From Phyllobates terribilis (lineage: Eukaryota): 64,000 bases of DNA. The translations under genes and the position numbers were made by a program. Positions 31,413 to 33,351 of the stretch are shown here, in pieces (position 1 is the stretch's first letter; each line of letters begins with the position of its first letter). The stretch lies in the NCBI RefSeq assembly GCF_046119375.1, contig NW_027362770.1:197346001-197410000 (forward strand), written 5' to 3'. The notes beneath the pieces are model-generated. The model was not told the DNA's origin and ran no database searches. It saw nothing but the letters and a program-made list of their open reading frames with translations.

Positions 31413-32387
31413 TGTAGCATCGGCGTCCCTGCCTCCTGCTAGGCAGGGACGCTGTTCCCCTCACCTCTCCGCTCTGTGCCCGGCGTCTTCCTCCCGCTCT
31501 GCTGGCAGCGCGCGCTGCTTCCCGGCCACGGTGCTTAGGGCGCGCGCGCGCTCCCCCTCTCTTAAAGGGGCCGCGCGCGCCGTCCTAAGGAGTCCCCGGC
31601 CAATGGCCGGAGGACTTCGCCATATATAAGGCACCTCCTCCAAAATGGAGGTGCCCGAGCAATGTTGTTGCAAAGCCTTCACTCTGCTTCAGCCCTCAGG
31701 TCCCGTTTCCAGTTACCTGCCAGTCACCTGCCAGATTCCTGCCTGTTACCTGCCAGTCACCTGCCAGATTCCTGCCTGTTACCTGCCAGTCACCTGCTTG
31801 ATACCTGCCAGATATCCGTTTACCTGCTTGCAAGCCTGCGGTCCGACGGTCTGCCTTCCGACACCTGTCAGTCTGTCTATGGACCAACCTGCCCGCTCAC
31901 CTGGGAGCGCTCGTCTGCTACCTGCCTGCTAGTCTACCTGGAGGCTCCGCCGTCACTTGCCGTGACCACCTGCCTGTCCAGAGACTCTTGTCTGCTCACC
32001 TGGGAGCGCTCATCTGCTACCTGCCTGCTAGCCTACCTGGAGGCTCCGCCGTCACTTGCAGTGACCACCTGCCTGTCCAGAGACTCTCGCCTGCTCACCT
32101 AGGAGCGCTCACCTGCTACCTGCCTGCTAGCCTACCTGGAGGCTCTGCCGTCACTAGCCGTGACCACCTGCCTGTCCAGAGACTGTCCCTGTCACTTGCC
32201 GTGACTACCTGCCCTTCTACCCAGAGACTGTCCCTGTCACTTGCCGTGACTACCTGCCCTTCTACCAAGAGACTGTCCCTGTCACTTGCCGTGATTACCT
32301 GCCCGTCTTCCCTGGGAGCCACCCGCTTCCTTACAAGAACCGCCCCCTTGTATAGTTGCTCAGAGGTTCCGCCTCCCAGACTCGTTA
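31413..32387 (+). repeat. Chromovirus 5' LTR
   Basis: Starts TGTAGC; CCAAT hairpin, TATATAA at 31623, internal tandem repeats; ends CGTTA, lacking the terminal CA present in the 3' LTR. Confidence 0.92.
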
Positions 32388-32400
32388 GTTTGCTCGGGCC

Positions 32401-33351
32401 ATGGAATCCGGTGGCACCCAAGCTCCCTCGCTCTCGGACCTATGTCATGAACTGTCCCGTCAGAGGTCCCAACAGGAGTCCATCCTGAGTCACCTGCGGA
32501 GTGTCAACTCTCTCCTGGACACTCTGTCTGCTCCACCTGCAACCACCGCTAGTGTCATGACTCGCAACCCAGCAGCGCCGCTGCCCACCAATACCATGGT
32601 ATCCTGTCCCGGACCCCGGTTTTCTGCACCTCCTCGTTTCGGAGGTGACTCCGCTCAAGCTCGGGGCTTCATAAACCAGTGCACCCTGCACTTTGAACTC
32701 TTGTCCCACCAGTTTATCTCCGACCGGTCCAAAGTAGCCTTTATCATGTCCCACCTCACGGGGGAGGCTCTGGCTTGGCTAAATCCTCTGTGGGAGAGAG
32801 GAGATCCCCTGGTGTCCGACCTGCCAGCCTTTCTCACGGCTTTCCGGAAAGTCTTCGACGAACCCGGACGGAAGACCTCATCCGCATCGTCTCTGCTACG
32901 CCTCCGTCAAGGAGATCTCACCGTGGGCCAATATGCCATACGGTTCCGTACCCTTGCTTCGGAGCTGGCCTGGGATAACGACGCTCTGGTGTCTGTCTTC
33001 TGGGAGGGTCTGTCCGGCCGTATTAAAGATGAACTCGCCGGTCGGGACATTCCTACCACTCTCGACGACTTAATAACACTTGCCACCCGGATTGACATCC
33101 GATTCCAGGAGCGCGCCAAAGAGGTCACCCGTGAGAGGAGGTTTCCACGTCTAGCCCCCACCTTCCAGAAATCCGTCACTCCCTCCGTTACTCCCCAGGC
33201 ACACTCACCTGAGCCTATGCAGGTCGACCAGACCAAGATGGTCAAAACCCGTCAAGACTTACGCCGTGCCGAGGGGAGCTGCTTCTACTGTGGCAGTAAG
33301 GAACACCGGATCCGTTCCTGCCCAGAGAGGTCGGGAAACGCCTGTGTCTAG
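32401..33351 (+). CDS. Chromovirus Gag (316 aa, PEG10/RTL1-like capsid plus CCHC knuckle)
   Basis: Intact [51 protein letters not shown]. Confidence 0.95.

Follow-up and report, generated by a model that had tools for sequence, protein, structure and literature searches.

How does a long terminal repeat (LTR) retrotransposon begin reverse transcription when no CCA-type tRNA primer-binding site (PBS) follows its 5′ LTR? This question is raised by an element in a 64,000-nucleotide stretch of the Phyllobates terribilis genome (contig NW_027362770.1, positions 197,346,001 to 197,410,000), hereafter the window, in which positions are counted from the first letter. We consider it likely, with a probability of roughly 0.85, that the element primes reverse transcription with the 5′ end of its own RNA, like yeast Tf1, since its PBS is complementary to the 10 bases with which that RNA is predicted to begin.

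The element and its predicted primer

The element comprises the following features.

31408–31412, + strand: target-site duplication CATAG, left copy (from sequence)
31413–32387, + strand: 5′ LTR, beginning TG and 2 nt short at its end relative to the 3′ LTR and sister copies
31623–31630, + strand: TATA box TATATAAG
31630–31655, + strand: 9-bp inverted repeat GGCACCTCC / GGAGGTGCC, between the TATA box and the predicted start (from folding)
31653–31662, + strand: predicted self-primer GCCCGAGCAA, the first 10 nt of R (from sequence match, with a predicted start site)
31709–32312, + strand: tandem-repeat-rich part of the leader, with 33-, 99- and 45-nt units, which would be looped out
32313–32331, + strand: U5 strand of a predicted third helix, pairing with 32402–32421 (−24.4 kcal/mol, shuffle p 0.015)
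32388–32389, + strand: 2-nt spacer GT from LTR end to PBS, reading G-N in every family examined
32390–32399, + strand: PBS TTGCTCGGGC, complementary to the self-primer (from sequence, family junction counts and swap test)
32401–33351, + strand: open gag frame with Retrotrans_gag, Ty3_capsid, DUF4939 and a CCHC finger (Pfam)
33300–36751, + strand: pol, with protease, RT, RNase H, integrase, SH3 and chromodomain, occupying two frames, the break lying near 34757–34772
33333–33339, + strand: −1 slippery heptamer G GGA AAC at the gag/pol overlap (from sequence)
36580–36595, + strand: polypurine tract and the bases preceding the 3′ LTR
36596–37568, + strand: 3′ LTR, TG...CA, containing the second primer copy (36839–36848)
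37569–37573, + strand: target-site duplication CATAG, right copy (from sequence)

Judged by these features, the element is a Ty3/gypsy chromovirus, all of whose characters examined here were found: TG...CA LTRs flanked by a duplication, a polypurine tract, the pol order PR-RT-RH-IN by Pfam, and a chromodomain (PF00385) at the integrase C-terminus (E 1.7e-11, above the curated cut-off). The best solved relative of its RT is Ty3, and the named RT homologues are mostly amphibian and fish. The Gag product carries the CCHC motif CX2CX4HX4C and has the PEG10 capsid as its best solved-structure match (E 4e-8). The heptamer G GGA AAC lies in frame, with pol in the −1 frame, and is a predicted frameshift site; its letters are identical to those of the PEG10 slippery heptamer in the available part of PMC2800197. 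All Tf1/sushi coding features tested were present, including the CCHC Gag and the −1 gag-pol site, and no defining feature failed outright, so that the element probably belongs to that group, a placement by features. The vertebrate RT matches and the PEG10 capsid match speak indirectly for a position in the fungal/vertebrate chromovirus clade.

The window copy itself is defective, with a broken pol frame and a 5′ LTR that is 2 nt short at its end. Its two LTRs differ by 29 mismatches over 962 aligned columns; the 5′ LTR ends GTTA and the 3′ LTR ends GTTACA, a 2-nt deletion that the initial annotation had overlooked. The deletion is private to this copy, because 28 of 28 parsed loci among the 29 nearest sister copies read CA at the LTR end, then the GT spacer, the PBS, a single C and ATG. 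The family junction has 18,248 exact matches genome-wide (reversed control, 0), and of 30 family copies sampled, 29 retain an intact primer. Contigs from 4 of 17 RNA runs cover the element, giving neither start nor strand, and the same 2-nt difference appears as an indel in the contigs from these four runs. In the window family, the sequence downstream of the primer yielded no poly(A) hexamer.

The primer–PBS match is exact: the predicted self-primer at 31653–31662 is the reverse complement of the PBS at 32390–32399. The initial annotation had located TATATAA at 31623–31629 and the two strands of the duplex at these same positions, and all three lie where it placed them; its distance of 30 nt after TATATAA holds when counted from the first T of that motif. 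It was likewise right that the gag ATG follows 1 nt past the duplex (a single C, then ATG at 32401), and its loop of about 730 repeat-rich nucleotides measures 727 nt and is rich in tandem repeats. The reported absence of a TGG-type tRNA site also holds, the earliest TGG past the LTR lying at +15, within gag ATG-G. The primer 10-mer occurs once per LTR and the PBS once in the whole window. Among 5000 dinucleotide shuffles of the 5′ LTR, 34 yielded a complement of at least 10 nt to the first 20 nt past the LTR; by simple arithmetic the chance falls to about 3.5e-5 if the match is restricted to 5 of about 975 positions, and since the match is located at TATA+30, a chance origin is far less likely than 34/5000.

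As to its surroundings, the element sits inside the gag region of a second LTR-type element, on the minus strand (28459–31407 and 37574–38050). The host element has the order gag, integrase (H2C2, rve, p58_C), RT, and the position of integrase ahead of RT suggests a Gmr1-like Gypsy element, as these are described in the accessible part of PMC3601003. Tandem arrays of 41-, 43-, 49- and 75-nt units (1–10888, 25967–27676, 38601–39771, 42181–46281 and 46264–62008) fill more than half of the window.

Paired change of primer and PBS among families

Related elements were gathered by family profile and not by PBS, and 40 stretches were taken. In 21 of them, the blind set, the LTR end was fixed from the LTR pair (the LTR starts of four were estimated); the other 19, with no LTR pair, tandem or segmental repeats, or partial LTRs, were left out of this set. 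A perfect match of 10–11 nt in the element's own 5′ LTR, at offset 1–2, was found in 16 of the 21 blind-set elements. Of the remaining five, four carry the match in one LTR, at the expected place and with no more than 1 mismatch, and L144 lacks a primer/PBS match. A motif scan of the 19 left-out stretches revealed a 10-nt match at offset 2 in 8, with L099 as a ninth.

From seven families, 12 representatives were hand-picked as the best-preserved copies; outside the window's own family, their identity to the window element is 61–85% in RT and 36–52% in Gag. Seven perfect primer/PBS pairs were found across the families, in addition to the degraded family C, their primers being GCCCGAGCAA, GCTAGAGTAT, GCTTGAGTAT, GCCTGAGTAT, GCTTGTGTAT, GCGCTCAGAT and GCGCTCTGAT. 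Each of the seven is a 10-nt match that begins GC, pairs 2 nt past the LTR and lies 30–32 nt after a TATA-like box, which is present in 12 of 12 representatives (the TATA scan resolved ties in favour of 30 nt). Seven of the 10 positions vary among the pairs, with changes on the two strands going together; a 10 × 10 swap matrix gave 8 nt or fewer in all 86 cells joining different primers. In the Gag tree, two sister pairs with strong support (B/B′ and G/G′) contain primer changes. The families show repeated paired change of primer and PBS; as they share common ancestry, the seven pairs are not seven independent origins. In the old family C, a match at the expected place with 1 mismatch remains in only 4 of 8 loci.

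The geometry is similarly uniform. The LTR ends in CA in 11 of 12 representatives, the exception being the window copy, and the G-N spacer is present in all 12. The primer starts GC after a pyrimidine in 12 of 12, so that base −1 is a pyrimidine and base +1 a G throughout, as expected of an RNA 5′ end. The PBS duplex always begins 2 nt past the LTR end, and the distance to the first ATG ranges from 1 to 53 nt. The loop spans 190–769 nt across the representatives, and the length of the leader's tandem-repeat part differs among copies. A young family, E (L091–L098), has LTR pairs that are 98.4–100% identical in six copies measured; its gag-pol forms one open frame of about 1499 aa, whereas the window family has the frameshift layout instead.

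Covariation across copies had been named in the initial annotation as a check on its proposal. Between families it is strong (seven pairs, swaps of 8 nt or fewer); within the window family it is not significant. Copies with a CpG variant in the PBS retain a canonical 5′ primer in 24 of 29 and 20 of 26 readable cases and a primer matching the variant in 3 of 29 and 2 of 26 (Fisher p 0.61 and 0.22); copies with a variant 5′ primer have a matching PBS in 1 of 12 and 1 of 11 cases. As the 5′ primers are mostly canonical and matched changes are not significantly enriched, most PBS variants represent decay after insertion. The 3′ LTR is readable in two of four copies with matched primer and PBS variants and carries the usual primer in both, so these copies too look like independent decay. 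The asymmetry of the CpG variants, 528 CA against 326 TG in the PBS and 603 TG against 520 CA in the primer, was considered as a footprint of primer copying and set aside: control CpGs stand at 78:76 overall, yet at 13:3 in the matching CCGA context, and sequence context may therefore explain it.

The best 150 Retrotrans_gag matches and the best SH3_Tf2-1 matches in the assembly all lie on small contigs (e.g. L061–L090 and L111–L140). At 27 of 30 small-contig gag loci a TGG-type tRNA PBS motif is present, which we take to be plant Athila-like, and the assembly may contain plant DNA. Profile matches to PF03732 and the best of those to PF24626 were set aside, as these small-contig elements are irrelevant to self-priming.

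Proposed mechanism and competing explanations

The initial proposal of Tf1-like self-priming with a 10-nt duplex gains support from the covariation between families and from the fixed geometry. Under this mechanism, transcription would start at G31653, the predicted start 30 nt past the TATA box; nucleotides 1–10 would fold back onto the PBS, assisted by a U5 helix over the gag start; the element's RNase H, whose domain is present in pol (Pfam), would cut past nucleotide 10, by analogy with Tf1, leaving a 3′-OH on the PBS; and RT would then copy the 2-nt spacer and U5, with R bases 1–10 subsequently supplied by the 3′ LTR.

Tf1 requires three duplexes, a 'pretzel' structure, according to the available part of 10.1101/2022.12.06.519325. 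The corresponding third helix, U5 with the gag start, was significant against shuffles (p below 0.05) in 6 of the 12 representatives, the window copy included; none of 18 cross-family swaps was better than the window helix, and paired changes were found between B and B′. In families D and G the helix is without support. The second helix, stacked on the primer duplex, is significant in 2 of 12 representatives (only B and B′) and adds nothing in the window copy. In whole-leader folding, the primer duplex pairs in the window copy with a mean probability of 0.75, in 8 of 12 representatives with one of at least 0.48 and in the other 4 with one of at most 0.07, and the minimum-energy fold of the window copy buries the PBS in a local hairpin. 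Structure predictions across 700 nt are weak evidence in either direction. An alternative predicted fold at 32313–32421, in which U5 pairs with both the PBS and the gag start to the exclusion of the primer duplex, could possibly act as a switch between translation and priming.

The inverted repeat at 31630–31655 was also folded (−19.5 kcal/mol, 0 of 500 shuffles); it is not significant in 9 other-family representatives, and a perfect palindrome is retained there in the A and A′ subfamilies. In the RNA it would mask the opening bases of the 3′ R copy; alternatively, it would work on DNA. A general U3–primer hairpin was rejected, being strong in the window family only.

The best-surviving alternative, itself improbable, is self-priming by the 3′ R copy or by a second co-packaged RNA instead of by the 5′ end in cis. 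The identical 10-mer sits in both LTRs and the loop to be closed is long and variable (190–769 nt), two points in its favour; against this, the match starts exactly at the predicted start and ends at base −1 in 12 of 12 representatives, and in the window family the beginning of the 3′ R copy would be hidden in a strong hairpin. Elements with a variant primer bear on the same point. An identical primer variant in both LTRs was found in 5 and 4 pairs, among 100 matches listed for each; of the nine taken, 8 were readable and all 8 have the usual PBS; in 4 of these the mismatch is central. Such a pattern agrees with the Tf1 model, where the 3′ LTR supplies R bases 1–10 of the progeny, and it speaks against copying of a 3′ R primer into the PBS; it does not separate self-priming from priming from outside. 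Priming in trans by the 5′ end of another RNA is compatible with all data here.

Considerably less probable is a purely structural role of the pairing, in circularising the leader, packaging or translation control, with something else as the primer. Two points would suit such a role: the duplex and the gag ATG are 1 nt apart, the ATG lying within the third helix in the window family, and the alternative fold conceals the PBS. Yet the duplex is fixed 2 nt past the LTR end, where DNA synthesis must start, at an ATG distance that varies from 1 to 53 nt, and no other primer site is apparent.

Least probable of all is priming by a host tRNA or tRNA fragment with the LTR match as secondary, for although half-tRNA priming is known in some Ty1/copia lineages (available part of PMC6317226) and our comparison covered tRNA-Lys(TTT) only, a mature CCA end cannot pair with no TGG before +15, which excludes CCA-end priming, the tRNA-Lys(TTT) 5′ end shares at most GCCC(G) with the primer, and seven PBSs would each need their own fragment while also tracking their own LTR, an argument of parsimony that alone counters priming by fragments. 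The tRNA search gave 63 scored matches, and the 30 loci examined were tRNA-Lys(TTT) and one pseudo-call. The tRNA-Lys(TTT) genes form tandem clusters on C1 at 816.9–817.9 Mb (about 1.05 kb apart) and on C11 at 574–576 Mb (L161–L190).

Priming by the RNA's own 5′ end thus leads to a concrete prediction, an RNA start at G31653 with a 10-nt primer, and the family is abundant enough for ordinary 5′-end sequencing. A broader proposal, which we offer tentatively and regard as rather doubtful, is that the sushi elements of vertebrates use a stricter variant of the Tf1 mechanism: a GC-starting primer of exactly 10 nt, a 2-nt G-N spacer giving retrovirus-like DNA ends, a U5 helix covering the gag start, which would switch the RNA between translation and priming, and a loop of up to 770 nt, with the family's mutations (more than 18,000 copies) recording both the identity of the primer as the 5′ end and its copying into the PBS.

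Relation to known self-priming elements

In Tf1, the RNA's first 11 bases pair with the PBS, and cleavage by RNase H falls between bases 11 and 12, as given in the accessible part of PMC7175516. Tf1 and Tf2 of Schizosaccharomyces pombe, Tj1 of S. japonicus, Tosmo1-3 and Tcry1 are likewise chromoviruses, with a PBS complementary to the RNA 5′ end, as is predicted for the window element; they have no tRNA PBS, and the window element has no site for a CCA end. The window element differs from Tf1 in its match of 10 nt instead of 11, for a predicted RNA start. The Tf1 PBS adjoins the LTR, whereas the window families have a fixed 2-nt G-N spacer before it; the loop of 190–769 nt is another difference from the fission-yeast elements. 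Unlike those elements as portrayed in the available part of 10.1101/2022.12.06.519325, which lack both, the window element has a CCHC Gag and a −1 frameshift site. Two of the three helices of the Tf1 pretzel appear to be supported here, from sequence prediction alone.

Self-priming has likewise been predicted from sequence for plant Tcn1-clade chromoviruses and TAR copia elements, according to the accessible part of PMC6317226, and these differ from the window element in host and lineage. No experimental test of self-priming in an amphibian was found in the literature searched, a scope outside which most subscription journals lie, and the available parts of PMC7472051 and PMC4340606 held nothing further on priming. 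Silencing by tRNA fragments is described for ERVs in the former; an element without a tRNA site would presumably offer that silencing no target.

The vertebrate Tf1/sushi elements (V-clade; sushi-ichi, Amn-ichi/ni/san) share with the window element the domain order, chromodomain, CCHC finger, PEG10-like capsid and slippery site. Self-priming is described as a common trait of the Tf1/sushi group, vertebrate members included, in the available parts of PMC6317226 and PMC4600332, and the Sushi LTR end motifs listed in the accessible part of PMC3601003 resemble those of the window families. Priming without tRNA is proven in fission yeast and had already been proposed for vertebrate sushi elements. 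The signature described here is real and finds good support in the comparisons; its mechanism was previously proposed for the group, and the accepted picture stands unchanged. To that picture the P. terribilis genome adds comparative support, in the form of seven primer/PBS pairs that share a single fixed geometry.
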